A stretch of 64,000 bases of DNA, taken from NCBI GenBank assembly GCA_964409365.1, contig CAYPCX010000009.1, positions 10,390 through 74,389 on the forward strand, in the 5' to 3' direction. Each line of letters opens with the position of its first letter. Within the stretch, counting starts at the first letter, position 1. A program made the position numbers and the translations under genes. Origin of the DNA: an uncultured Planctomycetia bacterium (GTDB taxonomy: Bacteria; Omnitrophota; Gorgyraeia; Tantalellales; Tantalellaceae). Below the pieces are notes generated by a model. It searched no databases. It saw nothing but the letters and a program-made list of their open reading frames with translations, and was not told where the DNA came from. Shown here piece after piece: positions 11,289 to 53,483 of the stretch.

Positions 11289-11557
11289 GTCAGGTCTCAG
11301 GTGTCAGGTTTCAGGTGGCAGGTAACAGAAAACAGAAGACAGAAGGAAGTGTCAGAGTGTCACCGCTCGCTACGCTCGCTAGTGTCATAGTGTCAGTTTC
11401 AGGCGACTTGCGACTTGCGACTGGTGACTGGTGACTTGCGACTGGTTACTGGTTACTGGTTACTGGTTACTGGTTACTTTATCCTTGATACTCGACACTT
11501 TTTCCTTTTTCCTTTATCCTTGTTACTTGTTACTTGCTACTTGACACTTTATATGCT
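11289..11557. repeat. Heptamer-phased tandem-repeat blocks filling the divergent intergenic region
   Basis: Consecutive 7-bp unit arrays: TCAGGTN x5, ACAGAAG x3, AGTGTCA x4, GCGACTT/GTGACTG/GTTACTG x9, TTTATCC/TTTTTCC, TTGTTAC x3. Confidence 0.8.
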
Positions 11558-11582
11558 ATTTTCATTTAGTAAGGCAGGCCTT

Positions 11583-12941
11583 ATGAAAAAACTGATCGAT
11601 ATAGTTCCCGAACAGTACCGCGAAGAGCTCTTGAAAAAACGCACCTCGCTTATCAAGAACAGGGTGCTTCTTCTGTGCATTCTGGCTATCGCTATATATT
11701 TTGCCGTCGCCGCAATATATGTCCTGATAAATCCCGAAGAGTTCAGGACCCTCGATATCGTTGCCGGCCTGGCACTTGCGGCGGGCGCCGCGGCCGTGAT
11801 CTTTCTTAACAGGAAGTCCAGGACGCTGGTCGCGGCTAAATTCAACGCGTATCTTTTCATAGTTTTTCTTTTGGCTCTTGCCGTGAAAATGGGGATAGCT
11901 TATGCCGATGACGCCGAGACCAGCGCAACGACCCTGGTCTTTATCCTGTTCCTGGTATCTTCCACCATACCCTGGACGCCTTTTGAGATCGTATTGATAG
12001 GGGTGATGCATTCTGTCGCTTACACGGCCACGTACTTTATTGTCAATTATGTTCCCGGCCTGGAAATGGAACCTTTTACTATCAGGGATTTCCTGGACGG
12101 CCTGATCTTCATAGTTATGGTCCTGGTGTTGTGCGTTGTGATCCGCAGGAAGGACGCCGTGATGTATACCGAGGATTTCGTCCTCCTTAAAAGAGTCGAA
12201 TCTCAGAAAGAGCAGATGCATGACGAGCTGGAGTTCGCGACGAGGATACAAAAAACCCTTGTCCCGGGCCCCCTGGGCAATGACAGGGTGGATATAGCCG
12301 TGGATTATCTCCCGGTCTATTATATGGGCGGGGATTACGCGAAGTACAACGTGCTCGATGAGTACAGGATAATATTCATCATGTGCGATGTCACCGGCCA
12401 CGGCGTTCCGGCGGCTCTTTTGGTCAACAGGATACATGCCGAATTCGAGCGGCTGGCGAAGGAAGGCAGGGAACCCGGAGCGCTTTTGAACGAGCTTAAC
12501 GGCTTCATAAAAGAGGATTTTGAAGGGACTGACATGTACCTCACCGCTTTCTGCGGTCTGCTGGATTTCAGTAAAAAGGAGCTTTTGTATTCGAACTACG
12601 GGCACCCGCCGCAGTATCTTTACCGCGCGTCGTTATCATCTGTACAGGCCATGCCGGCGCAGACCGCGCTCTTAGGGCTTCCTTTCGATGATACGAACAT
12701 TTACCAGGACAGTATCCCGTTCGGCAAAGGGGACAGGGTGCTGCTTTTCACCGACGGGGTCACCGAGACGTTCAACGACAGGAAAGAAGAATTCGGCACT
12801 GGAAGAGTGGAAGACCTTCTTGCCAGGGAGCACGCGATCCCGGCGGGCGAGTTCAACCAGAAGCTTATCGGCGAGTTGAACGCCTTCAAGAGCGGAGACT
12901 TCAGGGACGACATATTCATCATGAGTGTCGCTATAAAATAG
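11583..12941 (+). CDS. Membrane-anchored PP2C-type (SpoIIE/RsbU family) serine phosphatase
   Basis: N-terminal multi-TM region then a PP2C core (CDVTGHGVPAALL, LFTDGVTE). Start re-picked at ATG 11583. The track ORF start at 11415 only reads through the repeat array. Confidence 0.75.
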   Translation: MKKLIDIVPEQYREELLKKRTSLIKNRVLLLCILAIAIYFAVAAIYVLINPEEFRTLDIVAGLALAAGAAAVIFLNRKSRTLVAAKFNAYLFIVFLLALAVKMGIAYADDAETSATTLVFILFLVSSTIPWTPFEIVLIGVMHSVAYTATYFIVNYVPGLEMEPFTIRDFLDGLIFIVMVLVLCVVIRRKDAVMYTEDFVLLKRVESQKEQMHDELEFATRIQKTLVPGPLGNDRVDIAVDYLPVYYMGGDYAKYNVLDEYRIIFIMCDVTGHGVPAALLVNRIHAEFERLAKEGREPGALLNELNGFIKEDFEGTDMYLTAFCGLLDFSKKELLYSNYGHPPQYLYRASLSSVQAMPAQTALLGLPFDDTNIYQDSIPFGKGDRVLLFTDGVTETFNDRKEEFGTGRVEDLLAREHAIPAGEFNQKLIGELNAFKSGDFRDDIFIMSVAIK

Positions 12942-12969
12942 TTGAAAACGTCCGTTTAAGTTGTATAAT
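12942..12969 (+). promoter_or_regulatory. sigma70-like promoter TTGAAA-16-TATAAT for the small basic protein gene
   Basis: Hexamers read directly. Followed by GAGGAGG RBS. Confidence 0.5.
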
Positions 12970-12995
12970 ATCTCAGCGATCGCATAGAGGAGGAT

Positions 12996-13232
12996 ATGAT
13001 GAAACCCAGAAAGAACTACCGTACACGCCCGAAGAAGACCGGCGGCAAGAAAAAACAAAGGGTTGCCGCCCAGAAAAGGCGGCTCGTGGCTGCCGGATAC
13101 GATAAGGTAAAACTGGATAAATTGACCACTGTAGAGGTACGGGAACTCCAGAAGAAAGCGGGCAAAAAAAAAGGTTCGTCTTCTCCCAGAAAGAGGACAG
13201 CAAAAGCCAAAGCAAAGGTCTCAAAAAAATAG
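12996..13232 (+). CDS. Small (78 aa) very lysine-rich basic protein; possible histone H1-like nucleoid protein
   Basis: Strong RBS and promoter. K/R/A-rich tail (AKAKAKVSKK). The second ATG at 12999 has better SD spacing. Confidence 0.55.
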   Translation: MMKPRKNYRTRPKKTGGKKKQRVAAQKRRLVAAGYDKVKLDKLTTVEVRELQKKAGKKKGSSSPRKRTAKAKAKVSKK

Positions 13233-13233
13233 C

Positions 13234-15144
13234 TTACTCGCAGACGTTATAGGAACATTTGCAGTAAAAGGAAAGCATTTTCTCGGCTATTTTCTTCCAG
13301 CAGAATTCATTCCTTGCCAGTTCGAGCCCGTTGCGGGCTATTTTACTCCGGAAGGTCACATTTTTGTTGAGCACTAAAAGCGCCCAGCTCAGGTCTTTCT
13401 TGTTCACCGGGTTGACGATAAGACAGTTGTGCTTGTTCTTGAGGTATTTTCTGATGCCGGCGCGTTCGCTTACTATGACCGCTGACCCGCAGGCCATGGC
13501 CTCGGCGGCTGTCATCCCAAAGGGCTCGAATTTTGACGGCAGGACGAAGGCCTTGGCTTTCCTGTAATAAGAAGGAACAAAGTTGTCTTTGATGTGCCCG
13601 GTGTAAAAGATCCTGTTTTTGATCTGGGCTGCGTCAACTATTTCGCGAAGGTCCTGTTTTAGTTTTATCTCCCTGGTTTCCGGTCTTTTGGAACCTCCGC
13701 CGATCACGAGGAAAAGGTCTTTTGCCCTGGTAACGACCTTGGCGAAGGCCCTTAACAGGTAATCCAGGCCCTTGTTCGTGTCGAACCTGCCCATCCAGAA
13801 TATATAGTTCTGGGGGACGTCTATTTTTTTCTCTTTTTCTCCGCTTCTTAAGGGCCTGAAGAGGTTGGTATTCACACCGGCCGGGATGACGGTGTAGTTC
13901 TTTGACCTGTAGTTGTAGAACTTTTTTGAGAGTCTGACCATGTCCGGGCTCGTCATCACGAGTCCCCGGGCCTTCTTAAATATGATACGCTCGTATTTTA
14001 TCCTTTTTTTGAAGTTGAAAACTTTTTCCATCGTCTTCGTGTCGCCGCCCATCTGGAATTTCTTCCACGCGCCGAGGGAGTGATGAGTATGTATGAAGGG
14101 GCAGTGCAGCCGCTCGGTCAGTTTTATGGCGACATATCCGGCGCCCCAGTAATGCGAGTGGAACACGTCGTATGCCAGGCCCTGTTCCTTCATGAAACGC
14201 TCCATGTTCCTGGTAAAGGTGTCCAGATACGGAAAAAGTTTCTCTTTGGCTATGAACTTATCTCCGCCGCAAGGTATCCTTATTATGCGTACGTTCTTAG
14301 AGACGGGCTCTATTGTTCTCCTTTTCTGGAACTTCCTCGTGTAGATATCGACCTTGATGCCTTTTTTAGCTATGGCCTTGGCCAGTTCCAGGACGTAAGT
14401 GACCTGTCCGCCGGTATCCGTTTTACCGAGTGTCGGTTTAGCTTCGACATAGCCGTGGATGGACAGCATGCATACCCGTTTGATGTTGCTGGTGACCTTC
14501 CAGATGTCCGCCAGGGAGTAGTTTTTCCCTACCAGTATGTCTGCCAGTTTCGCGTGTTTGGATATGATGCCGTGTTCTATGGCCAGTATCTTCCTGTCAT
14601 AATCGTCTATTTTTTCCCTTTTTCTTTCCAGCCGGGTCTTGAGGGTGTCCCTGTAAGTGGGCAAAAGAAAGACCCTCTTATTGGCGTTCTTAAGCAGGGT
14701 GGTGTAGGTGCCCTCGATTATGAGCACCTCCGCTGTTTTGCACCTCAGGGTCTCCTTGCCGATCTTATCATTGTTGAAGTCGACGAGAGGTTTCAGGAGT
14801 TTTCCCGCACTGCAGTGTTTGAACCGCGCGATGTGCCTGTCCAGAAGGTCGAGTTTTACTTCGGAAGGCCCCACGATGGAGATATCCCTGCGGCGCATCA
14901 AATAGTTGGTCTTCGGGGGATAACGGAAATAGTCATCCTGGTGGATAGTGACGCTCTTTATGTCGTCCTTTTTGAAGAGGCGCGCCAGTTCATGGGCGAT
15001 CTCGGTCTTCCCCGAACCGGATTCGCCCGCTATGGTGATTACGTACCGTGAAGAGGAGGCCTGCACCTCGTGAAGTACCACCTTAACGATCTCTTTGGCC
15101 GCTTTTGTGTGGTGCCGTTTTATTATGAGTATATCCCCGCGCAT
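13234..15144 (-). CDS. Fusion protein: N-terminal uridine-kinase/phosphoribulokinase-like P-loop kinase domain + C-terminal sucrose-phosphate-synthase-like GT4 glycosyltransferase
   Basis: Walker A ITIAGESGSGKTEIA. Then HGY...LGKTDTGGQVTYVLELAKA (SPS/sucrose-synthase N-terminal signature) and the EPFGMTAAEAMACG GT4 motif. Confidence 0.7.
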   Translation of the reverse strand: MRGDILIIKRHHTKAAKEIVKVVLHEVQASSSRYVITIAGESGSGKTEIAHELARLFKKDDIKSVTIHQDDYFRYPPKTNYLMRRRDISIVGPSEVKLDLLDRHIARFKHCSAGKLLKPLVDFNNDKIGKETLRCKTAEVLIIEGTYTTLLKNANKRVFLLPTYRDTLKTRLERKREKIDDYDRKILAIEHGIISKHAKLADILVGKNYSLADIWKVTSNIKRVCMLSIHGYVEAKPTLGKTDTGGQVTYVLELAKAIAKKGIKVDIYTRKFQKRRTIEPVSKNVRIIRIPCGGDKFIAKEKLFPYLDTFTRNMERFMKEQGLAYDVFHSHYWGAGYVAIKLTERLHCPFIHTHHSLGAWKKFQMGGDTKTMEKVFNFKKRIKYERIIFKKARGLVMTSPDMVRLSKKFYNYRSKNYTVIPAGVNTNLFRPLRSGEKEKKIDVPQNYIFWMGRFDTNKGLDYLLRAFAKVVTRAKDLFLVIGGGSKRPETREIKLKQDLREIVDAAQIKNRIFYTGHIKDNFVPSYYRKAKAFVLPSKFEPFGMTAAEAMACGSAVIVSERAGIRKYLKNKHNCLIVNPVNKKDLSWALLVLNKNVTFRSKIARNGLELARNEFCWKKIAEKMLSFYCKCSYNVCE

Positions 15145-15285
15145 ATCGAATGCCTCGGACCCGCAAATATGATTTTCGTTGCCATCCGTTAGATATTTAT
15201 GCTATATATAATACTAAACTAATGGGCTAAAGCAAGCATATTTTGCCGGTACACGCGTGACTTACGTGGCTTACAGGAGGTTTTT

Positions 15286-16359: not shown

Positions 16360-16373
16360 AGAGGAGAGTAAAA

Positions 16374-25832: not shown

Positions 25833-26027
25833 ATGGGTAAAGTGTTGAGCCTTTTGATAGGCGCGATCGTGGCGATCGTAGGACTTATACTTCTTATCGC
25901 GTGGTGGTACGAACTTCTGTTCGTCCTCAGGGGGGTCATCCCGGCTATCCTTATACTGGGCGGTGTCATAGCCGTTATAGCCGGTTTCAGCGAACTCAAG
26001 GACGTCCTGAAGAGTAAAGGTGAATAG
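25833..26027 (+). CDS. Small (64 aa) two-TM membrane protein
   Basis: Strong RBS and promoter. Almost entirely hydrophobic. Confidence 0.5.
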   Translation: MGKVLSLLIGAIVAIVGLILLIAWWYELLFVLRGVIPAILILGGVIAVIAGFSELKDVLKSKGE

Positions 26028-26082: not shown

Positions 26083-26658
26083 ATGTCCCTGTATTTTAGA
26101 ACCCTGCTGATCGTGTTGGTCCTTATCACTTCCTTTTTGTGCCAGGGGTGCGTGAAGGACAGGGCCGAAATGGAGAAAGAGATACTCGGCCACGACCCGT
26201 CTTTCCAGAAAGATCTGGATAAGCGGAATACGGTCCAGAAGGAGATCGCCTCGCTGGAGGCGGCTTACCGCCAGACGTGCATGAAGATAGACGAGGAGAT
26301 AACCGCTCTTAAAGAAAAAAAGACGCAGGTAAAGAACGAGTACCTTACCTCTCTGGATAAGCTTAAGCGGCAGGTAAACCCGGAGGTAAGGGAGCTGCAG
26401 CGCAACCTTCTGGACATGCAGCGCGATCACAAGCGGCAGAAAGAAGAGCTTGGCGACATCGACAGGGACATAAAAGAGATCAACTCCCTGATCAACAAAA
26501 AGGACCAGCTCGTGCTGACACAGGAGGAGGTAAAGACCTGGAACGAGCGGCTTGCTTCCCTGGCGGAGAAAAAGTCCGCGGCAGATTCCGAGATCGAACG
26601 TCTCGCGAAAGAGATCGAGATAACGAAGCTAAAAATAAAAGTATTGAGTATCAAGTAA
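26083..26658 (+). CDS. Coiled-coil lipoprotein (hypothetical)
   Basis: Signal peptide with lipobox-like LITSFLC, then heptad-rich K/E sequence. Confidence 0.45.
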   Translation: MSLYFRTLLIVLVLITSFLCQGCVKDRAEMEKEILGHDPSFQKDLDKRNTVQKEIASLEAAYRQTCMKIDEEITALKEKKTQVKNEYLTSLDKLKRQVNPEVRELQRNLLDMQRDHKRQKEELGDIDRDIKEINSLINKKDQLVLTQEEVKTWNERLASLAEKKSAADSEIERLAKEIEITKLKIKVLSIK

Positions 26659-26759
26659 TAAGTATCGAGTATTGAGTGTTGAGTTGTTAGTTATGAGTTG
26701 TACGACTAAAAACTAAGAACTAAAAACTAACAACTAAGATTTAACATCAAACATCTGAT
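26641..26759. repeat. Heptamer-phased repeat block upstream of purH; left partner of an inverted pair with 29675-29750
   Basis: Units AGTATNG..., AGTTGTT, then NAACTAA x5, all in 7-bp register. Confidence 0.8.
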
Positions 26760-28343: not shown

Positions 28344-28372
28344 AGCCTGAAACTTGAGACCTGAGACCTGAA
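28344..28372. repeat. Short heptamer array (GAGACCT units) between purH and folC
   Basis: GAAGCCT GAAACTT GAGACCT GAGACCT GAA in 7-bp register. Confidence 0.6.
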
Positions 28373-28373: not shown

Positions 28374-29678
28374 ATGCCAACCTACGAAGATACCCTGGAA
28401 TTTCTGGATTCTTTCGTCAATTTTGAGCATATCGGTCTGACCGCCCGCGATACCAATTTCGATCTGGGCAAGATAAGACGAGTGCTCAGGAAAATGGGCG
28501 ACCCCCAGCTGGATTACCGGTGCGTGCACATAGCCGGAACAAAGGGCAAGGGATCGGCCTCCGCTTTCCTATCCTCGATGCTGCGGGAATCAGGCTGTAA
28601 CGTCGGCCTTTACACTTCGCCCCATCTTACGTCGGTCCGTGAACGGATACGGGTGAACGGCCGTATGATCGGCAAAAGGGATCTTGTCAGTGTGGCCGAC
28701 CGCCTGCGGGAACATATGGACCCGGGGTTCAGTTATTTCGAAGCGTTTACTTTGATGGCGATATTGCATTTCAGCATGCAAAAAGTGGACCATGCCGTCT
28801 TTGAGGTCGGTCTCGGCGGCAGGCTGGACGCCACGAACGTGATCAACGCCGGTGTTTGCGGTATAAGTCCGATCAGCTATGACCATACCCACGTGCTGGG
28901 TAATACTATTGAAGAGATAGCCGGGGAGAAGGTGGCTATCATAAAGAGGAAAGCCAGATGCGTGAGTTCCCCGCAAAAACCCGCGGCGCTCGAGGTCATC
29001 AGGGAAAAATGCGAGAAAGAGAACGCTTCGCTGTCGGTAGTGGGAAAGGACATCACGTACGATATAAAACGGCTTGACGAAACGGGGAGTTGTTTCGATG
29101 TTTTCGGCAGATCGGGCGCGTATGAAGATTGCCTGACGAGGATGCCGGGAGATTTCCAGCCTTTGAACTGCGCTGTCGCGGTGGGTCTTTGTGAGGAGCT
29201 TCTGCAAGGCGCAAGTTTGGACGCGCGAAAAATAAAGAAGGGAATAGAGAAAGCCTTTTTGCCCGGAAGGCTGGAGATCATAGGCCGCGAGCCGCTTATC
29301 GTCATAGACGGGGCCCAGAACGGGGAAAGCGCCAGGCGCCTGAGGAGCTCTGTTGAACGGATCTTCGATCATGGCAGGCTTATACTTCTTCTGGGGATGT
29401 CTAAAGACAAGGACATCAAAAGCGTCTGCGAAGAACTGGCTCCCCTGGCGGACAGTGTGGTGCTTACGCGTGCCTCCATTGAGCGCGCCGCGGACCCCCT
29501 TCTGATAAGGGGTTACATCAAGGGAAAAAAAGTGACGGTAACGGGGGATACCAGGGAAGCCCTCGGCGCGGCGCTGAGCCGTGCCGGGAAGAACGATACA
29601 ATACTGGCAACAGGGTCTTTTTTCGTGATAGGCGAGATCAGGCGTATGATACTCGGAGACGGTAAGGGTAGATGTTAG
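28374..29678 (+). CDS. folC: Folylpolyglutamate synthase / dihydrofolate synthase
   Basis: HIAGTKGKGS P-loop, Mur-ligase family architecture. Confidence 0.85.
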   Translation: MPTYEDTLEFLDSFVNFEHIGLTARDTNFDLGKIRRVLRKMGDPQLDYRCVHIAGTKGKGSASAFLSSMLRESGCNVGLYTSPHLTSVRERIRVNGRMIGKRDLVSVADRLREHMDPGFSYFEAFTLMAILHFSMQKVDHAVFEVGLGGRLDATNVINAGVCGISPISYDHTHVLGNTIEEIAGEKVAIIKRKARCVSSPQKPAALEVIREKCEKENASLSVVGKDITYDIKRLDETGSCFDVFGRSGAYEDCLTRMPGDFQPLNCAVAVGLCEELLQGASLDARKIKKGIEKAFLPGRLEIIGREPLIVIDGAQNGESARRLRSSVERIFDHGRLILLLGMSKDKDIKSVCEELAPLADSVVLTRASIERAADPLLIRGYIKGKKVTVTGDTREALGAALSRAGKNDTILATGSFFVIGEIRRMILGDGKGRC

Positions 29679-29750
29679 TTCTTAGTCGTACAACTCATAA
29701 CTAACAACTCAACACTTGATACTTTATCCTTTATCCTTGACACTTGATAC
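29675..29750. repeat. Heptamer-phased repeat block downstream of folC; reverse-complement copy of 26674-26723 minus one 7-bp unit, plus a TTTATCCTTGA[C/T]AC block shared with 11480-11500
   Basis: The reverse complement of 26674-26723 aligns to 29675-29716 apart from one missing TTTTTAG unit. Confidence 0.8.
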
Positions 29751-29754
29751 TTTC

Positions 29755-31146
29755 ATGAACAGTATGAACGATACCATAGCCGCGATATCCACGCCTCTCG
29801 GCCAGGGGGGCATAGGGATAGTACGCCTGAGCGGGCGGGCCTCGCTGGCGATAGCCGACAGGATATTCACCCCCCGCACGGGGGCGGGTCCCTCGGCCTG
29901 CCGGAGCCATACCGTCCATTACGGCTTTGTAAAGGTTCCCGGTAAAGATGAGATCGTCGATGAGGCGCTTCTCACCGTTATGTGTTCTCCCCAGACCTAT
30001 ACCACGGAAGACGTGGTGGAAATAAACTGCCATGGCGGGCTCATGCCGCTTAAAAGGGTGCTTGAACTGTGCCTGAAGGAGGGGGCGAGGCTCGCGGAAC
30101 CGGGTGAGTTCACTAAACGCGCTTTCCTGAACGGGAGAATGGATCTTTCCCAGGCCGAGGCGGTCCTTGACCTGATCAACGCCCAGACCGACACCTCGAG
30201 GAAGGTAGCCCTCGACCAGTTACGGGGATCCATCTCCGGGGAAATCCGCGGGATACGCGGTTCCATCCTCGATATCCTTTCGCTCATAGAGCTCACGATA
30301 GATTTTTCGCAGGAAGACGTGCATTTCCCGGAACGTGATAATATCACCGGTAGGGTGGAGGAGATCTCTCGTTCTCTCAGGCGCATGCTCGAGACTTCCG
30401 AAAAAGGCATGGTTTTACGGGAAGGAGCCAGCGTCGTGATATGCGGCAGGCCCAATGCCGGCAAGTCAAGCCTGATGAACGCGCTTTTGAGGCACGACCG
30501 GGTGATAGTGACGCCCGTAGCCGGTACGACCAGGGACGTCATAGAAGAGGCGATAGTGATATCCGGCGTCAAGGTGCGGCTTTCCGATACCGCCGGGATA
30601 GTCGAAACACACGACCGGGTGGAGATAGAAGGGGTAAAAAGGTCCAGGGAGAGGCTGGCCTGCGCGGATGTAGTGATCTTCATGCTGGATTCCAGTCTCC
30701 CTCTTTCGCGAAAAGACAAAGAGATATATAATACGATCAGGGATAAAAGGATGGTGATCGTCGCGAATAAGACGGACCTCCCTTCCGCGCTCGATATGGA
30801 TGAGGCAAGGCGCAGGTTCAAAAGAGATGACATCCTTGGGGTCTCGGTCCTGGAGAAGAAAGGCCTGGAAGATATCGAGGACGCCGTCGCGGCGAAGCTT
30901 TTCAGCGGAAGTATGGGGAGCCTCACGGAAGGGCCGGTGATAACGAACCTGAGGCACAAGAGATCGCTGGAAAAGGCGGCGGAGAGCATCGAGAGGGCCC
31001 TTTCGGTCACAGGCGCGGATTACAACGCTGAACTTCTTGCCAGCGACCTCAAGGAGGCGGCCCACCAGCTGGGGCTTGTGATCGGTGAGTCCGTCGAGGA
31101 CGATATACTGGACAGGATATTCTCGCAGTTCTGCATAGGAAAATGA
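29755..31146 (+). CDS. mnmE: tRNA modification GTPase MnmE (TrmE)
   Basis: N-terminal DTIAAISTP, G-domain, C-terminal CIGK. Confidence 0.9.
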   Translation: MNSMNDTIAAISTPLGQGGIGIVRLSGRASLAIADRIFTPRTGAGPSACRSHTVHYGFVKVPGKDEIVDEALLTVMCSPQTYTTEDVVEINCHGGLMPLKRVLELCLKEGARLAEPGEFTKRAFLNGRMDLSQAEAVLDLINAQTDTSRKVALDQLRGSISGEIRGIRGSILDILSLIELTIDFSQEDVHFPERDNITGRVEEISRSLRRMLETSEKGMVLREGASVVICGRPNAGKSSLMNALLRHDRVIVTPVAGTTRDVIEEAIVISGVKVRLSDTAGIVETHDRVEIEGVKRSRERLACADVVIFMLDSSLPLSRKDKEIYNTIRDKRMVIVANKTDLPSALDMDEARRRFKRDDILGVSVLEKKGLEDIEDAVAAKLFSGSMGSLTEGPVITNLRHKRSLEKAAESIERALSVTGADYNAELLASDLKEAAHQLGLVIGESVEDDILDRIFSQFCIGK

Positions 31147-31162
31147 TGGATATGGAACGTTC

Positions 31163-31275
31163 CAGAAGACAGAAGTCAGAAGACAGAGGTCAGAGGTCAG
31201 ATATTAGGTGTTTGCTGTTGAAAGATACTATAATATTTTTTCTGTCCTCTGTTTTCTGTCCTCTGTTTTCTGAGA
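31163..31275. repeat. Inverted pair of heptamer arrays (CAGAAGA/CAGAGGT x5, then TCTGTCC/TCTGTTT x4) around a 40-bp AT-rich spacer carrying TATAAT, upstream of folE
   Basis: Left arm 31163-31200 and right arm 31241-31275 are reverse-complement-related CAGA-type heptamer arrays. Confidence 0.75.
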
Positions 31276-31298
31276 CATGTATTTAACGGAGGAAAAAA

Positions 31299-33378: not shown

Positions 33379-33472
33379 TATGTCGTATCTCGCATATAGT
33401 ATATCGTCGAAATCTTTGACGTGCGCTAAAAATAACGATATACGAAATACGATATACGAAATACGAAATGCG
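33379..33472. repeat. Heptamer-phased repeats (GATATAC/GAAATAC units) upstream of accA
   Basis: CGATATACGAAATACGATATACGAAATACGAAATGCG in 7-bp register, with a weaker phased tract upstream. Confidence 0.6.
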
Positions 33473-36840: not shown

Positions 36841-36942
36841 GGTGAGTTATGAGTTTTGAGTTATGAGTCGGCACGAGCGACCACATTCACAACTAATAAC
36901 TAACACCTAATAACTAATAACTAATAACTAATAACTAACTAA
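36841..36942. repeat. Quasi-palindromic heptamer arrays (NTGAGTT x4, spacer, ACTAATA x7) between mlaF and mlaD
   Basis: Left and right arms are approximately reverse complements. 7-bp register throughout. Confidence 0.8.
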
Positions 36943-37553: not shown

Positions 37554-37585
37554 TTCAGGTGTCAGGTCTCAGGAGAGCCGGGACG

Positions 37586-40404: not shown

Positions 40405-42317
40405 TGAAGAAATTCGACCGGACCAAACTTGCTTATATCTGTCTTGCCGTTTTCATGGCGGGGCTTTTCCTCTTTTTTTCCTGGGCCAGGGTGTTCGACG
40501 AGTTCGAGTACAGCACGCTGGACTTCAGGTACAGGTTAAGGCCTCCCCAGAAGGTCGACTCGGATATCGTGATAGTGGAGATCGGCGACGATTCCATCGA
40601 AAAACTGGGCAAATGGCCTTTCCCCCGTAATTACCACGCGCTTGTCGTGAATGCCCTCAAATCATCGAACGTAAAGACGATCGTTTTTGATGTTTTCTTC
40701 AGCGAGGAAAAAGAAGGGGACGAGGAGTTCGCCGAGGCCATAAAAGACGCGGGCAATGTGTACCTGCCTTATGTTTTCGAGCTTAACCGCGACCCTCCCG
40801 ACAGGACGCGCGTGTACGCCACCGGTTACGCGGCGGAACTGTTAGATATTTTTAAAAAGGTCGCCAGAGGCATAGGGTTCATAAATGTGGAACCTGACAT
40901 TGACGGGAAGATACGCAGGGTGCCTCCCTTTATCGAGTACAAGAACGTCCTGTATCCGCATATTACGGTGCTTGTGGCGCTGAACAATTTGGGTTACAGG
41001 TTCGACGAGGTTAAGATAATACCCGGCAAAAGGATGATGATCGGCGAAGACCTGGTCATACCCCTGGACAGCGACTCTTCCATGCTGGTGGATTATCCGG
41101 CGGTCTGGGGCAAGGCATTCCGCCATTATTCATACGTGGATATCATCCAGTCGTATCTCGCGGACGTAACGGGACAAAAACCTATACTGGACCTGAACGA
41201 GCTCGGCGGGACCATATGTTTCATAGGTCTTACCGCGACGGCGGCTCCCGACGCCCATCCGTCGCCGATGGAGCCTCTATACCCGGGTATTGGGGTACAT
41301 ACGAGCATTTACAACAGTATAATGAGCAATATCTTTCTCAGAAGGCTTAACAGGTGGTGGAACCTCCTGATACTTATTGTGCTCTGGTTCCTTACCGGAT
41401 ACCTTACCTCAAAGAGCCGGAAGCGTTTCGCTATTCTCTCCATGATCCTTTTAACGGTCCTCTTTATCATGGTGGCCATTTTTATGTTCTGGCCGCTCGG
41501 AATATGGATCGACCTTTTTTATCCGATCATATCGTGTTTGGGAGTCTACATAATTTTTACGTTCAAAAAATACATAACGGAGACACAGAAAAGGGAGATC
41601 ATCGAGAAAGAGCTGAACATCGCCAGGGAGATACAGGAGAGTTTTCTGCCCAAAGAGATCCCGCAGGTCGGGGGGCTCGAGGTGAGCGTAAAGATGCTGA
41701 CAGCCAGGCAGGTTGGCGGGGACCTTTATGATATAGAGCAGCTTGACGACAACAAGCTCGGGATCATGATCGGGGACGTCTCCGGTAAGGGGGTTCCGGC
41801 CGCCCTTTACATGTCAAGGGTGGTCAGTGTTTTCAAGACTTACATGAGGGAAGGAACGGCTTCGGAAGTCGTTAAGAACATTAATAACCGTTTAGTCGCG
41901 GAAGCGGCCAGTAACCTTTTCGTGACACTTGCCTATATGGTGTTCGATACGGAGAAAAAGATAGCCGATTTCGCGATGGGCGGGCACCTGCCGACGATTG
42001 TCATGGAACCGGACGGCAATATAGAGCTTCTTGACGTTTCGGAGGGGATGCCGCTGGGGCTTATAGAAGGGGATTTCTCGCCGGGAAGAAAAGAGTATAA
42101 ACCGGGAAGCATTTTCGTGTTCTATACTGACGGCGTGACGGAGGCTATGAACATAAAGGAAGAGATGTTCGGCCAGGATCGCCTGGTGAAGCTGGTAAAA
42201 GGCCTCAGGGGCCGGTCTACACAGGAGATAGTGGATTCCATACACAAGGTCATCGGGGCATTCGAGGGAAAAGGCAATCAGCATGACGATATCACGGTGA
42301 TGGCGATAAAGACGTAG
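40404..42317 (+). CDS. CHASE2 extracytoplasmic sensor domain - multi-TM - PP2C (SpoIIE-type) serine phosphatase
   Basis: N-terminal TM plus periplasmic CHASE2-like domain, 3-4 TM helices, C-terminal PP2C (IGDVSGKGVPAALYM, FYTDGVTE). Start overlaps the OMP stop (ATGA). Confidence 0.75.
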   Translation: MKKFDRTKLAYICLAVFMAGLFLFFSWARVFDEFEYSTLDFRYRLRPPQKVDSDIVIVEIGDDSIEKLGKWPFPRNYHALVVNALKSSNVKTIVFDVFFSEEKEGDEEFAEAIKDAGNVYLPYVFELNRDPPDRTRVYATGYAAELLDIFKKVARGIGFINVEPDIDGKIRRVPPFIEYKNVLYPHITVLVALNNLGYRFDEVKIIPGKRMMIGEDLVIPLDSDSSMLVDYPAVWGKAFRHYSYVDIIQSYLADVTGQKPILDLNELGGTICFIGLTATAAPDAHPSPMEPLYPGIGVHTSIYNSIMSNIFLRRLNRWWNLLILIVLWFLTGYLTSKSRKRFAILSMILLTVLFIMVAIFMFWPLGIWIDLFYPIISCLGVYIIFTFKKYITETQKREIIEKELNIAREIQESFLPKEIPQVGGLEVSVKMLTARQVGGDLYDIEQLDDNKLGIMIGDVSGKGVPAALYMSRVVSVFKTYMREGTASEVVKNINNRLVAEAASNLFVTLAYMVFDTEKKIADFAMGGHLPTIVMEPDGNIELLDVSEGMPLGLIEGDFSPGRKEYKPGSIFVFYTDGVTEAMNIKEEMFGQDRLVKLVKGLRGRSTQEIVDSIHKVIGAFEGKGNQHDDITVMAIKT

Positions 42318-42356
42318 TATCGAGTATCGAGTATCGAGTATGGAGTATCGAGTATT
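42317..42356. repeat. Heptamer array GTATCGA x5 immediately after the CHASE2-PP2C stop
   Basis: GTATCGAGTATCGAGTATCGAGTATGGAGTATCGAGTAT. Same AGTATCG unit as at 26660. Confidence 0.7.
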
Positions 42357-44060: not shown

Positions 44061-44084
44061 TAACATTCTAAAATATTTTTGTGT

Positions 44085-44171
44085 GCCGGAGTGGTGAAAC
44101 TGGCAGACGCGCCGGACTCAAAATCCGGTGGGGGCAACCCCATGTGGGTTCGATTCCCACCTCCGGCACCA
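44085..44171 (+). tRNA. tRNA-Leu (anticodon CAA), class II with long variable arm, CCA encoded
   Basis: Acceptor stem GCCGGAG/CTCCGGC. Anticodon loop CT-CAA-AA. Long extra arm. TPsiC GGTTCGATTCC. Confidence 0.85.
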
Positions 44172-47931: not shown

Positions 47932-47951
47932 GATTTTTCATAAATTCCGGT

Positions 47952-48027
47952 GGGGCTGTAGCTCAGCTGGGAGAGCGCGTGCATGGCATGCATGAGGTCA
48001 GGGGTTCGATCCCCCTCAGCTCCACCA
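47952..48027 (+). tRNA. tRNA-Ala (anticodon GGC), CCA encoded
   Basis: G3:U70 pair in the acceptor stem. Anticodon loop AT-GGC-AT. TPsiC GGTTCGATCCC. Confidence 0.9.
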
Positions 48028-48030
48028 ATT

Positions 48031-48327: not shown

Positions 48328-48747
48328 GTGATGAGAGAAGTGAGAAAAGAAGCGTTTGGTCCGCATCTGATGCTGGACCTAAGGGAGTGTGTCGCGGAAA
48401 AGCTTCGTGATTATGATCTCATTTTCGAGATACTGCACGACCTTCCGGAAAAGATAGGGATGACCAGGATAACGCAGCCGTATGTCTTTCCTTATTCGGG
48501 GCTGGTCCCGGAGGACAAGGGCATAACCGGGACGGTCATCATAGCGGAAAGCCACATATCTATCCACACCTTTCAGGAGAAGGATTACTGCTTTGTGGAT
48601 GTCTTCTCGTGCAAGGACTTTGACGTGGACTTCGCCGCCAAGTATCTGATAAACGCTTTTGAGTCAAAGAATTACGATAAATACGTAGTGCACAGGGGCA
48701 AGGATTTTGCGAGATTCAGGCAGGCCGAAGAAGTGGCCGTAGCCTGA
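48328..48747 (+). CDS. speH: S-adenosylmethionine decarboxylase proenzyme (small SpeH/SpeD class 1)
   Basis: Self-processing motif AESHISIHTF(Q)E. GGAGG RBS. Confidence 0.8.
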   Translation: MMREVRKEAFGPHLMLDLRECVAEKLRDYDLIFEILHDLPEKIGMTRITQPYVFPYSGLVPEDKGITGTVIIAESHISIHTFQEKDYCFVDVFSCKDFDVDFAAKYLINAFESKNYDKYVVHRGKDFARFRQAEEVAVA

Positions 48748-48755
48748 CCATACTG

Positions 48756-49610
48756 ATGGGACACGGAATATGCTTTGCCGGGTCTGAAGGATCATGCGGC
48801 GATCGGGATAAAGCGGAAATAACGATACTGCCTGTTCCTTACGACAGGACAAGTACTTGGATAAAGGGGGCCGATAAGGGCCCCCTTGCTCTTTTAGAGG
48901 CCTCCGCGGCTCTCGAGTTCTACGACATGGAGACGGACTCCGAGGTGTACAGGCGCGGTATATATACGTGCCCTTTTCTCGAGGTCGATGTTCCGCCGGA
49001 AGAGATGGCGCTCCGGGTAGAGGAAAAAATCACGGAGCTCCTGGACGAGGGTAAGTTCGTCGTAACGATAGGCGGGGAACATTCCGTGAGCGTCGGCCCG
49101 GTAAGGGCGCATAACAAAAAACACAAAGACCTCTGCGTTCTCCAGCTGGACGCCCATTCCGACCTGAGGGACGAATACGAGAACAGCCGTTATAACCACG
49201 CCTGCGCCATGGCCAGGGTAAAGGAAACATGCCCGGTGGTCCATGTCGGCGTAAGGAGCATGGACGTATCGGAAAAGAAGAGGCTCGATCCGGGAAGCGT
49301 CTTTCCGGCCAGAGACATCTTTGGGAAGAAGGACTGGGTAGACTCCGTGGTTGGACGGCTTTCGCCGGACGTTTATGTGACCATCGACCTGGACGTGTTC
49401 GACTCGAGCCTGATGCCGTCGACGGGCACGCCCGAACCCGGCGGCCTTACGTGGTACCAGGTGCTCCGGCTTTTGAGGACCGTGACGGAGGCGAGGAACG
49501 TTGTCGGTTTTGACGTGGTCGAGCTTTGTCCCAGTGAACACAACAAGGCCCCCGATTTTACGGCCGCGAAACTGGTTTATAAGTTTTTAAGTTATGTATA
49601 TAATAAGTAA
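48756..49610 (+). CDS. speB: Agmatinase (arginase/ureohydrolase family)
   Basis: GGEHS, DAHSD and TIDLDVFD metal-binding motifs. Polyamine context next to speH. Confidence 0.75.
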   Translation: MGHGICFAGSEGSCGDRDKAEITILPVPYDRTSTWIKGADKGPLALLEASAALEFYDMETDSEVYRRGIYTCPFLEVDVPPEEMALRVEEKITELLDEGKFVVTIGGEHSVSVGPVRAHNKKHKDLCVLQLDAHSDLRDEYENSRYNHACAMARVKETCPVVHVGVRSMDVSEKKRLDPGSVFPARDIFGKKDWVDSVVGRLSPDVYVTIDLDVFDSSLMPSTGTPEPGGLTWYQVLRLLRTVTEARNVVGFDVVELCPSEHNKAPDFTAAKLVYKFLSYVYNK

Positions 49611-49670
49611 CCAGTAACCAGTAATAAGTAATAAGTAACCAGTAACCAGTAACCAGTAACCAGTAACCAG
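49601..49670. repeat. Heptamer array TAATAAG/TAACCAG x10; overlaps the last four speB codons and its stop
   Basis: Reverse complement of the CTGGTTA arrays at 11440-11480. Perfect 7-bp register. Confidence 0.85.
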
Positions 49671-49696
49671 ACTGGGAACTAAACAAGCGTATTCAT

Positions 49697-52162
49697 ATGG
49701 AACAATATAACCCCGGTAAAATAGAAAAGAAATGGCAGAAGCGCTGGAGGAAAGAAGGCCTTTTCAATATCGACGTCAAGGATACCTCCAATAAGTATTA
49801 CTGCCTGATGATGTTCCCGTACCCTTCGGCGGCGCTGCACGTCGGCCACGGGAGGAACTACATAATAGGTGACGTGGTCGCCCGCTACAAGATGATGAGG
49901 GGCTTGAACGTGCTTACGCCGATGGGGTGGGACGCTTTCGGCCTTCCCGCGGAGAACGCCGCTATCAAAAGCGGCCTGCACCCCAAAGAGTCCACGTTGG
50001 ATAACATAGCGATGATGAAGAAGCAGATGGATTCCTGGGGGGTGGATTATGACTGGCAGCGCGAGGTCACTTCCTGCCTGCCCGATTATTACAAGTGGAC
50101 CCAGTGGATATTCCTGAAACTTTTCGAGAAAGGTCTTGCCTGCCGCAGGGAGGCGTTCGTCAACTGGTGCCCGTCCTGTAGCACAGTTCTTGCCAACGAA
50201 CAGGTCGTGAACGGCCAGTGCGAAAGATGTGACACCCGGGTCGAGCAAAAACAGCTGGAACAATGGTTCTTCCGTATTACGGAGTACGCCGAGCGGCTGC
50301 TTAACGACCTGGAGAAGCTTGACGAGTGGCCCGAGAAGGTGCGGATAATGCAGCGCAACTGGATAGGCCGCTCGGAAGGCGTGAACATAGACTACCCGAT
50401 AGTAGGTTCCGACAAGAAGCTTACTTGCTTTACGACTCGTGTCGACACCATATATGGATGTACTTACATGGTCCTTGCCGCGGAGCACCCCATGATAGAA
50501 GAGCTGGTCGCGGATGATCCCGAGAAAGAAAGAATAATGGAATTCGTCCGCGAAGTGAGGAACGAATCCAAGATCGAGCGGCAACAGATCGAGACCGAGA
50601 AAAAAGGAATATTCACAGGTAAGTACGTCATCAACCAGATAAACGGGAGGAAGATACCTCTCTGGATAGCGGATTATGTGTTGATGGAATACGGTACCGG
50701 CGCCGTGATGGCCGTGCCCGCCCATGACCAGAGGGATTTCGAGTTCGCCAAGAAATACGGCCTGCCGATAGAAGTGGTCATAGACGACCCGGCCGGGCAT
50801 CTCGAGGCGAAAAAAATGACCGAGGCGTACGAGGATGAAGGTGTCCTTGTCAATTCCGCGCAGTTCGACGGCATGAAGAACACGAAAGCCATGGAAGCGA
50901 TAGCCGACCACATGGAAAAAGAAGGTATCGGCAAAAGGGCGGTCCATTATAAGCTGCGCGACTGGCTCATTTCCAGGCAGAGGTACTGGGGAGCTCCCAT
51001 ACCTATAGTTTATTGTGACAAGTGCGGGATCGTCCCCGTTCCCGAGGACCGGCTTCCCGTTATCCTGCCGGAGGCCATAAAGTTCAAACCGACGGGAGAA
51101 TCTCCCCTTAAGGGAATATCCGATTTCGTTAATGCGAAATGTCCGTCGTGCGGCGGGAACGCCAAAAGGGAGATCGACACGATGGATACCTTCGTCGATT
51201 CAAGCTGGTATTATCTCCGTTATATCTCCCCGAAACTGGAGGACAGGCCGTTCGACACGGAAGACGTGAACAGGTGGCTGCCGGTAGACCAGTATATAGG
51301 AGGGGTGGAACACGCGATATTGCACCTTTTATATTCAAGGTTCATCACGAAATTCCTTTGCGACGCCGGTTACGTGGGTTTCGACGAGCCGTTCAAACGC
51401 CTGTTCACACAGGGCATGATAATCAAGAACGGCGCCAAGATGTCAAAGTCGAAGGGGAACGTCGTAAGCCCCGACAACCTTATTAAAAAGTACGGCGCCG
51501 ATACGGTACGTTTGTACACGCTTTTCATAGGGCCGCCCGAGAAAGACGCCGAATGGTCCGACAGGGGAGTGGAGGGGGCGTACCGTTTTCTCAAGAGAGT
51601 ATGGAACCTCCTCGAGGTATATGAGAACTCCGGTGAGGAGGGCGCCGACGGGGCGGCGAAAGAAGACCTTATGAGGAAGATGCACCAGACCGTCAAGAAA
51701 GTGACCGACGATATAGACGGGGCGTTCCATTTCAATACCGCTATCAGCGCGGTCATGGAACTTGTTAACCAGGTGTATGTTAGCGTGAACGAAAAAGGCA
51801 AGCATTGTTTCAGCAGGAAATGTCTTGAAGAAGTGATAGGCAACATAACGCTGCTTTTGGCGCCTTTCGTGCCTCACATAGCCGAAGAGATACGCGGAAG
51901 AATGGGAGTGAAAACAAGCGCTTTCAGGTGCAAGTGGCCGGCCTACCGTGAAGATATGCTGCTTGCCGATACCGTGGTCGTTCCCGTCCAGATAAACGGT
52001 AAGCTGCGCAGTACCATAGAAATGCAGCGCAACCTGGACCAGGATAAGATACGGGCGATCGTCGCGGAAGACGAGAAGGTCAAACAGTGGGTCGGGGGTA
52101 AAGATATCCGCAAATGGATAATCCTTCCCGATAAGCTGGTGAATATAGTCGTTAGTCGTTAG
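49697..52162 (+). CDS. leuS: Leucyl-tRNA synthetase
   Basis: HVGHGRNY (HIGH-class) and KMSKS motifs. Full-length bacterial LeuS. Confidence 0.95.
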
Positions 52163-52174
52163 TGCCGAGGGATA

Positions 52175-52936
52175 ATGAAAAGAATATCCTTATTTCTGAT
52201 ACTTGCGTTTCTTCTGACACCTGCGCGTGCCGCTTTTTCCGAGGTCCCGGACCTTAAGAAAGCGAAAGAATATGACGCGAAGATCCCCATAAAGGTGGTC
52301 AGGGAGATACCGCTTCCCAAAGGGTATCATGAGGGCCTCTTCTATGACGGACAGCACATGTGGGTGTGTAACGGCGAAAAAGGGAATATCTGGCTTGTGG
52401 ACCTCGGAACGGGCGCCGTCGATTCGGAAATAGAACCACCGGGAACGTTTACCGAGGGAGTGACGCTTTCCGGGAAAGGCACCTTCTGGGTGACCGACTG
52501 GGACGAAAAGAAGCTTTACCGCGTAAAGGTCGAAGACGACAAGATGGTCGTGGATTATGACATCTCCCTCGAACCGGCGCACCCGACGGGTGTGGTGTGG
52601 ACGGGGAAGAACCTGTACGTTATTACCTGGACCAGGGGTGTGACCGGGACCACGTACCATCTCATGCAGATGGATGAGGACGAACGCCTTTTCCGCAAGA
52701 TGCGGATAAAAAGGATACATGAACCCGCGCACCTGGCGTGGGATGGACATTACCTGTGGATAACAAGCTGGTACAGCCGGCTCGTGTATAAGGTGGATGT
52801 GGAGACATTCAGGGTCCTCGGGTCTTTCCGTTCGCCCGCGGTGGCGCCTACCGGGATCACCTGGGACGGGCAGTATCTATGGATAACGGGGACCCGTGCG
52901 GGGCTGTATCAGGTAGAGGTGGGCAAGGGGGAGTAG
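52175..52936 (+). CDS. Secreted beta-propeller-like repeat protein (glutaminyl-cyclase-like repeats), function uncertain
   Basis: Signal peptide. Four repeats of the G-x-x-W-D/T-G-x-x-L/M-W-V/I type. Confidence 0.45.
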   Translation: MKRISLFLILAFLLTPARAAFSEVPDLKKAKEYDAKIPIKVVREIPLPKGYHEGLFYDGQHMWVCNGEKGNIWLVDLGTGAVDSEIEPPGTFTEGVTLSGKGTFWVTDWDEKKLYRVKVEDDKMVVDYDISLEPAHPTGVVWTGKNLYVITWTRGVTGTTYHLMQMDEDERLFRKMRIKRIHEPAHLAWDGHYLWITSWYSRLVYKVDVETFRVLGSFRSPAVAPTGITWDGQYLWITGTRAGLYQVEVGKGE

Positions 52937-52942
52937 GGCCCA

Positions 52943-52970
52943 GGGAACGTGGGAGACCACGTTCTTTTTT
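52943..52970 (+). terminator. Rho-independent terminator
   Basis: GGGAACGTGG-GAGA-CCACGTTC followed by TTTTTT. Confidence 0.65.
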
Positions 52971-53037
52971 ACCCATAAATTTGATGAAAAACAAAAAATA
53001 AATAGACAAATAATCAATATTGAAGGATAATGATTAG

Positions 53038-53063
53038 GAGAGTAACCAGTTACCAGTGACAGG
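53038..53063. repeat. GTAACCAG-type heptamer repeat upstream of the four-helix-bundle gene
   Basis: AGTAACCAGTTACCAGTGACAG. Inverted relative to 53454-53483. Confidence 0.5.
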
Positions 53064-53436
53064 GAAAATGGCAGGATTTAAGTTTGATTTCGAAAATCTG
53101 AAAGTTTATCAGAAGTCTTTGGATTTCATAGATGCAGTTTTTAAAATATATAAAAACTTAAGCCATGAATATAAATACTCGATAGGCAGCAATTTGATCA
53201 GAGCAGCTTTGTCAGTATCCAATAATATTGCAGAAGGTAACGACAAGGGGTCTAACAGGGAAAGAAATAGATACTTGTCTATTTCATCTGGTTCTACGAG
53301 AGAGTGCGTCTCGGTTTTAAATATTTTAAAAAGACAGAATATGATTGATACAAATGTCTATTTAAAGTTGAGAAATGATGCTCGGGAAATTACGAATATG
53401 CTTCAAGGTTTGATCAAAAATAATTTAAAACGATGA
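53056..53436 (+). CDS. Four-helix-bundle protein (TIGR02436 family, the so-called 23S rRNA intervening-sequence protein)
   Basis: YQKSLDF...IYK...FP..E.Y.I.SQL.RAALSVSNNIAEG...S.RE...YL.IS.GS..E is the family signature. Sits in an AT-rich islet. Alternative ATG at 53068. Confidence 0.7.
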   Translation: MTGKMAGFKFDFENLKVYQKSLDFIDAVFKIYKNLSHEYKYSIGSNLIRAALSVSNNIAEGNDKGSNRERNRYLSISSGSTRECVSVLNILKRQNMIDTNVYLKLRNDAREITNMLQGLIKNNLKR

Positions 53437-53453
53437 ACTTTTTAATTCTATTT

Positions 53454-53483
53454 CTGGTTACGGGAAACCGGTTACTGGTTACT
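53454..53483. repeat. CTGGTTAC-type heptamer repeat downstream of the four-helix-bundle gene
   Basis: CTGGTTACGGGAAACCGGTTACTGGTTACT. Confidence 0.55.

Follow-up and report, generated by a model that had tools for sequence, protein, structure and literature searches.

A chromosome segment of 64,000 nucleotides from an uncultured Candidatus Omnitrophota bacterium (hereafter the window) carries a set of spacers, confined to 11.3-53.5 kb, that contain tandem arrays of 7-nt units. These heptamer arrays are real, intergenic, lineage-specific and mutually related. Their placement is restricted to the expandable junctions of a long, conserved, co-directional string of housekeeping genes, and they are absent from the closest syntenic relatives. 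The interpretation we favour, with moderate confidence, is that the arrays are of the same type as the short tandemly repeated repetitive (STRR) sequences of filamentous cyanobacteria, in that they would grow by slippage, be copied between loci, be transcribed within operon mRNAs and probably exert hairpin or leader effects. An initial annotation made from the letters of the window had described the arrays as a genome-style feature, which we judge to be right; the pairing of arrays with their reverse complements into hairpins had escaped it.

The excess of 7-nt periodicity was assessed by running Tandem Repeats Finder (TRF), which reports arrays with a period of 7 or its multiples 14, 21, 28 and 35, on the window and counting the period-7 rows, with 100 dinucleotide-preserving shuffles serving as the null. 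The window yields 20 such rows compared with a mean of 1.07 (maximum 4) in the shuffles, and these rows cover 784 nt compared with 17 nt, an excess that excludes a chance origin. TRF places the arrays at essentially the same coordinates as those reported initially and adds two small ones, at 37555-37573 and 52146-52163 (Table 1). The weakest item is 53038-53063, a marginal locus where about three degenerate units (AGTAACC AGTTACC AGTGACA) overlap the start of an open reading frame (ORF) and elicit no TRF call. Intergenic self-match at lags of 7, 14, 21 and 28 is 0.366, 0.361, 0.343 and 0.321, respectively, versus about 0.26-0.28 at other lags, and the coding DNA of the window exhibits period 3 only. 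The earlier statement that the arrays are not CRISPR also stands, given that their units are 7 nt long and contiguous, versus the 24-48 nt repeats with unique spacers of CRISPR loci.

A total of 689 of the 777 nt in arrays with periods of 7 or its multiples lie outside gene models, and arrays are present in 11 of the 30 spacers of at least 25 nt. Many arrays adjoin stop codons, and those following hyp191 and leuS cover the final codons of the gene before them as well as its stop codon. The window matches ENA contig ERZ27256770:k141_1771530 at 100% over their overlap; going by its coordinate offset (window = record - 73328) and stated length of 132280, this contig would end near window position 58950. 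Six arrays are reproduced at 100% identity in independent Logan and JGI contigs (L082, L105), so the arrays are not assembly artefacts; the 49601-49670 array, for example, is unchanged in L105. The Logan contig ends exactly at two arrays. A further array, with the unit AAGTAAC, is located 3 kb upstream of the window.

Units within an array diverge with distance, with the mean Hamming distance rising from 1.43 at lag 1 to 2.68 at lag 6, and several arrays alternate two units so that a 14-nt period scores above the 7-nt period. This combination of distance-dependent drift and 14-nt periods is the pattern characteristic of local duplication by 7 or 14 nt at a time with later point mutation, and the comparison of units bears out the initial observation that the 7-bp register is held while the units drift. 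At least ten distinct unit sequences are present in the 64 kb. As the initial annotation had noticed, unit families recur between loci, and they do so in both orientations, thereby linking arrays at 11.3, 26.6, 28.3, 29.7, 31.2, 36.9, 37.5, 42.3, 49.6 and 53.4 kb.

The relationships between loci extend to heterogeneous composite blocks. An inverted copy of 88 nt (26635-26722 versus 29669-29756; 83%, I1) flanks purH-folC, and another inverted block of 26 nt relates 11290-11315 to 28346-28371 (92%, I17). Direct sharing is seen for 46 nt at 11490-11535 and 29707-29752 (83%), for 36 nt at 11446-11481 and 53451-53486 (86%), and between 11297-11315 and 37555-37573 (95%, D11), while, read on the opposite strand, the 49601-49670 array corresponds to the ACTGGTT arrays at 11420-11478 and 53454-53483 (I2-I13). 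Because composite blocks of this kind are shared, copying between loci is needed beyond slippage. The proposal in the initial annotation that a slippage process with a 7-bp step created the arrays is thus a reasonable account of their origin, as judged from the drift and the 14-nt super-periods, but it is insufficient alone.

Roughly half of the loci, or five to six spacers, contain a purine-rich array followed by its near-complement and can form long hairpins, and in all of these the purine-rich arm is the 5' one on the sense strand. The 31150-31298 region is predicted to fold into a hairpin of about 45 bp with an RNA folding energy of -58.3 kcal/mol (z -7.8) on the + strand and -40.1 kcal/mol on the - strand. 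As the initial annotation had it, the array here brackets a TATAAT, which sits in the loop between the inverted arms. The 11270-11582 region folds at -114.9 kcal/mol (z -4.9), hairpins at 26.6, 33.4 and 36.9 kb are weaker, and a spacer of the related locus L092 folds at -72.5 kcal/mol. As an indicator of RNA-level selection, G-U strand asymmetry gives a mixed picture: the sense strand folds better by 18-34 kcal/mol in the two largest hairpins, whereas three others favour the antisense strand. Single forward arrays that abut start codons (28346, 29714 and 53454) stand in place of a Shine-Dalgarno sequence and give G-poor, essentially unstructured leaders (folding free energy, dG, of 0 to -0.5 kcal/mol). 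The array at 36891 does so in part, and that at 42316 does not, as a ribosome-binding site follows it.

The best relatives of the window MnmE protein (58-74% identity) are metagenome-assembled genomes (MAGs) named Candidatus Omnitrophota, and ten concatenated proteins of the window are likewise nearest to Candidatus Omnitrophota MAGs, which indicates that the host is not a cyanobacterium. Its arrays are set in a long co-directional string of housekeeping genes comprising uvrD, mgtE, purH, folC, mnmE, folE, ykuD, accA, mlaEFD, fecR, CHASE2-SpoIIE, iPGM, sat-cysC, leuS and comEA/EC. Among the loci fetched for comparison (L-numbers), the order mgtE, mamI-like, hyp, purH, folC, mnmE, folE, DUF212, ykuD, accA, HATPase, STAS, mlaEFD is kept in at least 12 Omnitrophota genomes. 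In the closest relatives (L083-86/L089 and L100-L103; 69-72% identity, 3009 aligned residues), the junctions measure 1-25 nt and period-7 arrays are all but absent. The more distant L090-L095 carry heptamer arrays, mostly as inverted pairs, at hyp>purH, folC>mnmE, ykuD>accA and mlaF>mlaD, as in the window. No array occupies an overlapping or tight junction (accA>HATPase, DUF212>ykuD). The units of the relatives are different again; those common to the window and distant lineages are AGTAACC/ACTGGTT (L091), ACGATAT (L092) and AGAAGTC (L090), and (ACGAWWT)n is found just upstream of accA in four lineages.

A neighbour-joining (NJ) tree of the ten concatenated proteins nests the window among array-free relatives, with short internal branches. 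Such nesting speaks, though not firmly, for the arrays having been gained by or having invaded this lineage, with several losses as the alternative. Two comparisons of one spacer hint at constraint. The window and L092/L093 share both ykuD>accA hairpin arms, including the odd unit GCATATA, with the arms aligning at about 27/32 and 25/30 positions, and among 103 loci the 13-mer TCGCATATAGTAT is present only in this spacer of the window and L092/L093, whose proteins are about 65% identical. Between L092 and L093, this array spacer has 0/155 differences, compared with 34/927 in ykuD and 5/233 in accA (2-4% in the flanks). L090 exhibits yet another arrangement, in which six copies of a mosaic element of 180-270 nt (1343-1540, 3748-3925, 6895-7075, 9157-9400, 10919-11185 and 14584-14860) lie within 20 kb, all in the sense orientation. 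The modules are ordered as purine-rich heptamers, a GACTATT array, the core GACAGAGAATGACCGATGTGAGAAT, an AATAGTC array, ACTGTTCAC and a TCACGAA array. The segments GACAGAGAATGACCGATGTGAGAAT and ACTGTTCAC are conserved and not heptameric, and two of the copies are nearly identical over about 200 nt.

Unrelated palindromic dispersed repeats occupy junctions that hold arrays in the window, both in the close relative L087 (GTAGGTCACATTTAAATGTGACCTAC; 2243-2464 and 4028-4216) and in another, L100 (TCTAACCTGGTTAGA; 8775-9636 and 14395-14484). Because the same junctions are filled in this manner, they look like general repeat sinks.

A census across phyla was based on mnmE-anchored loci and on arrays of at least 3.5 copies. 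Period 7 dominates in Omnitrophota-like loci (17 arrays, 8.4 per 100 kb) and in Nitrospirota (14 arrays, 7.8 per 100 kb), while in other phyla such arrays occur at 0.63 per 100 kb and period 7 is not dominant. The heptamer style therefore extends to Nitrospirota, a phylum little discussed in this context. Period-7 arrays of at least four copies (e.g. ACTAATA, CTCTGAC, CGTTACG) were noted in the Nitrospirota loci L027, L028, L035, L057 and L079.

In the model we favour, arrays would expand and diverge through replication slippage that duplicates 7 or 14 nt at a time. Template switching, ectopic recombination or a process like that of miniature inverted-repeat transposable elements (MITEs) would then place copies of whole composite blocks, in either orientation, in other spacers, and tightly coupled junctions would never accept them. 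The arrays are probably transcribed inside polycistronic mRNAs, as suggested by the fact that the flanking co-directional genes are only 1-25 nt apart in relatives. Inverted pairs would form imperfect stem-loops of 20-45 bp, resembling REP/BIME or STRR hairpins, that might serve in 3'-end protection, as RNase III-type processing sites or as partial terminators. Single G-poor arrays at start codons would replace the Shine-Dalgarno region with an unstructured leader.

Several points weigh against this model. Slippage is deduced from the pattern of the units, and most arrays are imperfect (70-93% matches), such that present-day slippage should be slow, and the strictness of the 7-nt register is not accounted for. 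Invariant positions within units are contiguous above expectation (55 versus 48.3, P about 0.012, for arrays that are not mutually independent), which hints at a constrained core. Transcription and all of the RNA-level effects are likewise predictions made from the DNA itself. Consensus scans of the array spacers found no canonical sigma-70 promoter or intrinsic terminator, and the sense strand is not consistently the better-folding one, so that RNA-level selection is only a possibility. Moreover, the unchanged spacer of L092/L093 and the arms it shares with the window suggest constraint or recent transfer, not neutral junk. The comparison of array lengths recommended in the initial annotation revealed no polymorphism, in a test that had little power because all assemblies to hand for this organism agree in the arrays and their flanks alike. 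Arrays do not differ among the assemblies of ENA, Logan and JGI, or between L092 and L093, and a scan of JGI metagenomes found no same-species contigs. The arrays are stable sequence features, not hypervariable switches.

Two other readings are compatible with STRR-type arrays as just described. We consider it possible, if only tentatively so, that the arrays are selected cis-acting RNA or DNA elements, with the paired ones forming processing, stability or termination hairpins and the start-proximal ones forming translation leaders under purifying selection. This overlaps the favoured model and differs in that function, not neutrality, would maintain the arrays. It draws on the identity of the L092/L093 spacer between diverged genes, on the junction, unit family and odd unit that the window shares with this pair despite the distance between their proteins, on the recurrent (ACGAWWT)n upstream of accA, on the purine-rich arm that leads in every window hairpin, on the uniform orientation of the six L090 elements and on the more stable sense strand of the two largest hairpins. 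Heptamers near start codons are also known to alter reporter expression in Nostoc (bioRxiv 10.1101/2022.06.06.494920). However, the conservation evidence comes from a single spacer compared between two strains, the better-folding strand varies from locus to locus and no Rfam family matches the arrays. In addition, five syntenic close relatives manage without arrays in their short junctions, and L087 and L100 hold unrelated repeats in the same places. Somewhat doubtful is the reading that arrays are modules of a non-autonomous mobile mosaic element (compare MITE, REP/BIME and BOX) whose arms would consist of heptamer repeats and which would insert into intergenic spacers, possibly moving between lineages. 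The modular L090 copies with their non-heptamer segments, the composite blocks copied in both orientations, the unit families shared with L091, L092 and L090, the breaking of assemblies at arrays and the position of the window within an array-free group in the NJ tree, more readily explained by invasion than by inheritance, all agree with such mobility. Nevertheless, inspection by eye of the window and the L090 copies disclosed no defined termini, target-site duplications or terminal inverted repeats, and no transposase or RAYT-like gene is present among the ORFs scanned. The loops of different window loci are not related to one another, element length and module content form a continuum, and the NJ topology is not robust given its short internal branches.

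The initial annotation had offered, as its other explanation, arrays of binding sites for one DNA-binding protein. The strict 7-nt phase and the contiguity of invariant positions are in keeping with phased sites for a sequence-specific protein, as is an AGT/ACT core present in 13 of 18 window arrays versus 24% expected. This core is not enriched in relatives (9/41), however, and so reflects common descent within this genome; a universal AGT/ACT core linking the units to STRR and TAACTGA repeats was rejected on the same grounds. With at least ten distinct units in the window that differ again in relatives, arrays in both orientations, downstream genes that have no common function, and mutational events that do not cluster at hot or cold positions within units (P 0.41), we find the proposal unlikely. 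A 7-bp spacing, furthermore, does not keep sites on one face of B-DNA. Very unlikely are contingency loci, that is, hypermutable simple sequence repeats (SSRs) that switch neighbouring genes. Some arrays do lie between a promoter-like or ribosome-binding region and a start codon, and heptamer SSR phase variation is known in Haemophilus. Yet the arrays are imperfect, their neighbours are core housekeeping genes (purH, folC, mnmE, accA, leuS), three independent assemblies agree fully on six arrays (with low power for the window organism), and those of L092/L093 are identical despite the divergence of their flanks. Finally, an ambitious synthesis, which we regard as improbable, would make the arrays building blocks of an orientation-specific, horizontally spreading mosaic element in Omnitrophota, Nitrospirota, Cyanobacteria and Beggiatoaceae. 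Its paired arrays would form slippery-register hairpins under purifying selection, serving either for RNA processing between cistrons or as multivalent platforms to which an oligomeric protein binds by recognising a short core at 7-nt intervals, for which HutP, a reader of UAG-N4 triplets, provides a parallel.

Table 1. Heptamer arrays of the window, with their genomic setting, composition and TRF coordinates.
Position	Setting	Units and structure	TRF call	Families
11289-11345	divergent spacer, polyprenyl synthase gene (-) / SpoIIE phosphatase gene (+)	purine-rich GTCAGGT x5 then ACAGAAG x3; 5' arm of giant fold-back (from TRF and folding)	11289-11552	I17, D11
11403-11552	same spacer	composite drifting GCGACTT > GTGACTG > GTTACTG x5 > TATCCTT/TTTCCTT > GTTACTT > GACACTT; 3' arm of same fold-back; periods 7/14/21/28/35; blocks copied at 29707-29752 and 53451-53486	11289-11552	D1, D3
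26640-26739	hyp191>purH spacer; first 19 nt overlap 3' end of upstream ORF	AGTATTG/AGTTGTT then near-complement ACTAAAA/ACTAACA; hairpin AGTTGTTAGTT/AACTAACAACT	26640-26737	I1
28346-28371	fills 30-nt purH>folC spacer	CCTGAGA array; no Shine-Dalgarno	28346-28371	I17
29669-29752	up to mnmE ATG	small hairpin tip (GTCGTAC centre) and ACAACTC/ACTTGAT/CCTTTAT arrays; leader G-poor (G content 7%) and almost unstructured, dG -0.5 kcal/mol over 76 nt	29690-29752	I1, D3
31163-31272	mnmE>folE spacer	CAGAAGA/CAGAGGT (31163-31204), loop with TATAAT (31229-31234), complementary TTTTCTG/TCCTCTG (31238-31272)	31163-31272	
33379-33469	ykuD>accA spacer	GTATGTC/GTATATC, loop, ACGATAT/ACGAAAT; both arms alignable with L092/L093 spacer	33430-33469	
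36843-36938	ends at mlaD ribosome-binding site	TGAGTTA (36843-36868) and near-complementary AACTAAT (36891-36938)	36843-36938	
37555-37573	32-nt mlaD>fecR spacer	TCAGGTG/TCAGGTC mini-array	37555-37573	D11
42316-42355	between CHASE2-SpoIIE stop codon and iPGM ribosome-binding site	AGTATCG x5.7; 93% matches	42316-42355	
49601-49670	upstream of leuS	TAATAAG/TAACCAG (equivalent to AGTAACC) x10; purest array, TRF score 102	49606-49670	I2-I13
52146-52163	overlaps leuS stop codon	TAGTCGT x2.6	52146-52163	
53036-53063	5' edge of S23p/23S-rRNA-IVP-family ORF	about three degenerate AGTAACC-type units	none	D2
53454-53483	between S23p-family gene and comEA, up to comEA ATG	CTGGTTA array; no Shine-Dalgarno	53454-53483	D1

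One locus deserves separate description. At 53036-53486, a gene of the S23p / 23S-rRNA-intervening-sequence family (PF05635, 53056-53436) is enclosed by a long-range stem predicted between the flanking arrays 53036-53063 and 53454-53483, and this stem is present in both the minimum free energy (MFE) and centroid structures. The PF05635 family includes the Avd proteins of diversity-generating retroelements (DGRs). Within the shared mosaic element considered improbable above, this S23p/Avd-like gene would be one candidate partner. The gene and its two arrays resemble the stem-plus-ORF layout of rRNA intervening sequences (IVSs), and in the Coxiella IVS, tandem heptamers (GACAGAT) are situated just before the S23p ORF (PMC4990558).

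Several other features of the window and its relatives were recorded. A AAGATACTATAAT-like motif recurs upstream of genes at 31222-31241, 44062-44081 and 62357-62376 (direct family D10), with one copy in the loop of the mnmE>folE heptamer hairpin, and it may represent the -10 region of this organism. An Rfam search of the window returned only two tRNAs and nothing in the arrays. These tRNAs, tRNA-Leu(CAA) at 44085-44171 and tRNA-Ala(GGC) at 47952-48027, lie within the co-directional string, and their adjoining spacers (61-79 nt) are array-free. At 55645-63898, GC content falls from about 0.52 to 0.39-0.43 across a polysaccharide export / O-antigen-type locus that encodes FecR-like, beta-barrel porin, Poly_export/SLBB, Wzz-GNVR tyrosine kinase, Wzy_C and GT1 proteins, and no heptamer arrays are present there, though the spacers measure 112-159 nt. 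A 64-aa ORF directly 3' of mgtE (25833-26027) has a precomputed match to MamI (PF26391) and is kept at the same position in all syntenic Omnitrophota relatives; a Pfam scan of it at E<=0.001 gave no match. Its product may simply be a small membrane protein resembling MamI, in which case it would not be evidence of magnetosomes. The 1818-aa ORF at 1709-7165 has Pfam matches only to N-terminal HTH_3/HTH_19 domains and none over the remainder.

In the relatives, the second FecR-domain gene of L083 (19084-19272; also L084-86 and L089) contains about seven copies of a coding 21/42-nt tandem repeat, GGTAGCGGAAAAGAAAGAGAA, with a period divisible by 3 as well as by 7, in a relative that is array-free. 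L093 carries four tandem 15-nt palindromic units (CAACCTCGTAGGTTG) at 5615-5674, in its purH>folC spacer. The purH>folC and folE>DUF212 spacers of L092 and L093 differ by indels of about 200 nt.

In the 35 years since heptanucleotide arrays became known (1990), no origin or function for them has gained acceptance. What is new here is their presence in a further phylum, Omnitrophota, beside close relatives that have no arrays. The comparative system consists of a string of about 20 genes, in the same order in at least 12 Omnitrophota genomes, in which the same junctions contain no spacers, heptamer arrays or palindromic repeats. This layout makes gain versus loss, neutrality versus constraint, and effects on the expression of neighbouring genes testable with existing metagenomes and metatranscriptomes. 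The value of the finding thus resides in the syntenic comparison of loci with and without arrays, and in the hints of constraint and block mobility, rather than in the existence of the repeats. As a practical matter, such arrays interrupt short-read assemblies, and gene prediction can misplace stop codons and start sites because of them.

STRR sequences of heterocystous and filamentous cyanobacteria were reportedly described by Mazel et al. in 1990. The initial annotation did not recognise the arrays as belonging to any kind it knew, but intergenic heptamer arrays have already been described under the names STRR, long simple sequence repeat (LSSR), TAACTGA and GGGAATC (PMC4679880, PMC4692102, PMC2670836). 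STRR sequences are composed of 7-bp units and form hairpins between operon genes, and roles in transcript stability or translational coupling have been proposed for them (PMC2670836). The window arrays are similar in having tandem 7-bp units, several families per genome, many dispersed intergenic sites including sites inside operons, and an ability to form hairpins, which STRR sequences do at hupS-hupL, for example. They differ in that their host belongs to Omnitrophota, not Cyanobacteria, in being shorter and more drifted, and in exhibiting the array-plus-complement architecture and the copying of composite blocks documented here. The canonical STRR units CCCCAGT, TTGGTCA and CAACAGT were not found in the window, where the best approximation is CACCAGT x2 with two mismatches.

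In marine Beggiatoaceae, some Cyanobacteria and Bacteroidetes, start codons can be preceded by TAACTGA direct repeats (MacGregor 2015, PMC4679880). They comprise 2-6 or more copies right before start codons, often in place of a canonical ribosome-binding site, and their downstream genes, as in the window, share no function and include essential genes. The closest window counterpart is TAACTAA x4-7 (36911-36938), a forward array that abuts the mlaD ribosome-binding site with one mismatch per unit; the exact TAACTGA unit or dimer is absent from the window. In that system one unit dominates, related heptamers are rarely repeated (BOGUAY) and almost all repeats are direct, whereas the window has many units, commonly repeats related ones and presents inverted pairs at roughly half of its loci.

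The REP/BIME and BOX elements of proteobacteria and Firmicutes are modular intergenic repeats within transcription units, whose hairpins affect mRNA stability or termination. The window arrays resemble them as short repeats located between or 3' of genes, with a modular mosaic structure, hairpins and lineage-specific abundance. However, the basic unit here is a 7-nt direct repeat rather than a palindrome of 20-40 nt, palindromy arises only through paired arrays, and the copies are far more heterogeneous. No RAYT-type (Y1) transposase was matched among the larger window ORFs scanned against Pfam. The intergenic heptamer arrays GGGAATC and GGGGA(T/C)T of Xanthomonas and Nostoc are G-rich and form quadruplexes (PMC4692102). 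These also occasionally occur as inverted pairs, but the window units have no G-runs.

LSSRs, with units of 5-11 nt, are most commonly heptamers and have been attributed to polymerase slippage by hypothesis, according to the summaries of Mrazek et al. 2007 given in PMC4679880 and PMC4692102. As far as those summaries go, LSSRs and the window arrays have in common an excess of long tandem repeats, a predominance of heptamers, an intergenic bias and a sporadic phylogenetic distribution, and neither Omnitrophota nor Nitrospirota is among the LSSR genomes they name. Our literature search likewise found no paper linking Omnitrophota with heptamer repeats. As summarised there, LSSR is a statistical category rather than a mechanism, and it does not cover inverted pairing or composite blocks shared between loci. 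The window has the excess of tandem 7-bp repeats, the mainly intergenic placement at many dispersed loci and the few recurrent unit families that typify LSSR and STRR arrays. The arrays thus work like STRR sequences and belong to the broad heptanucleotide LSSR class, not to the named sequence families.

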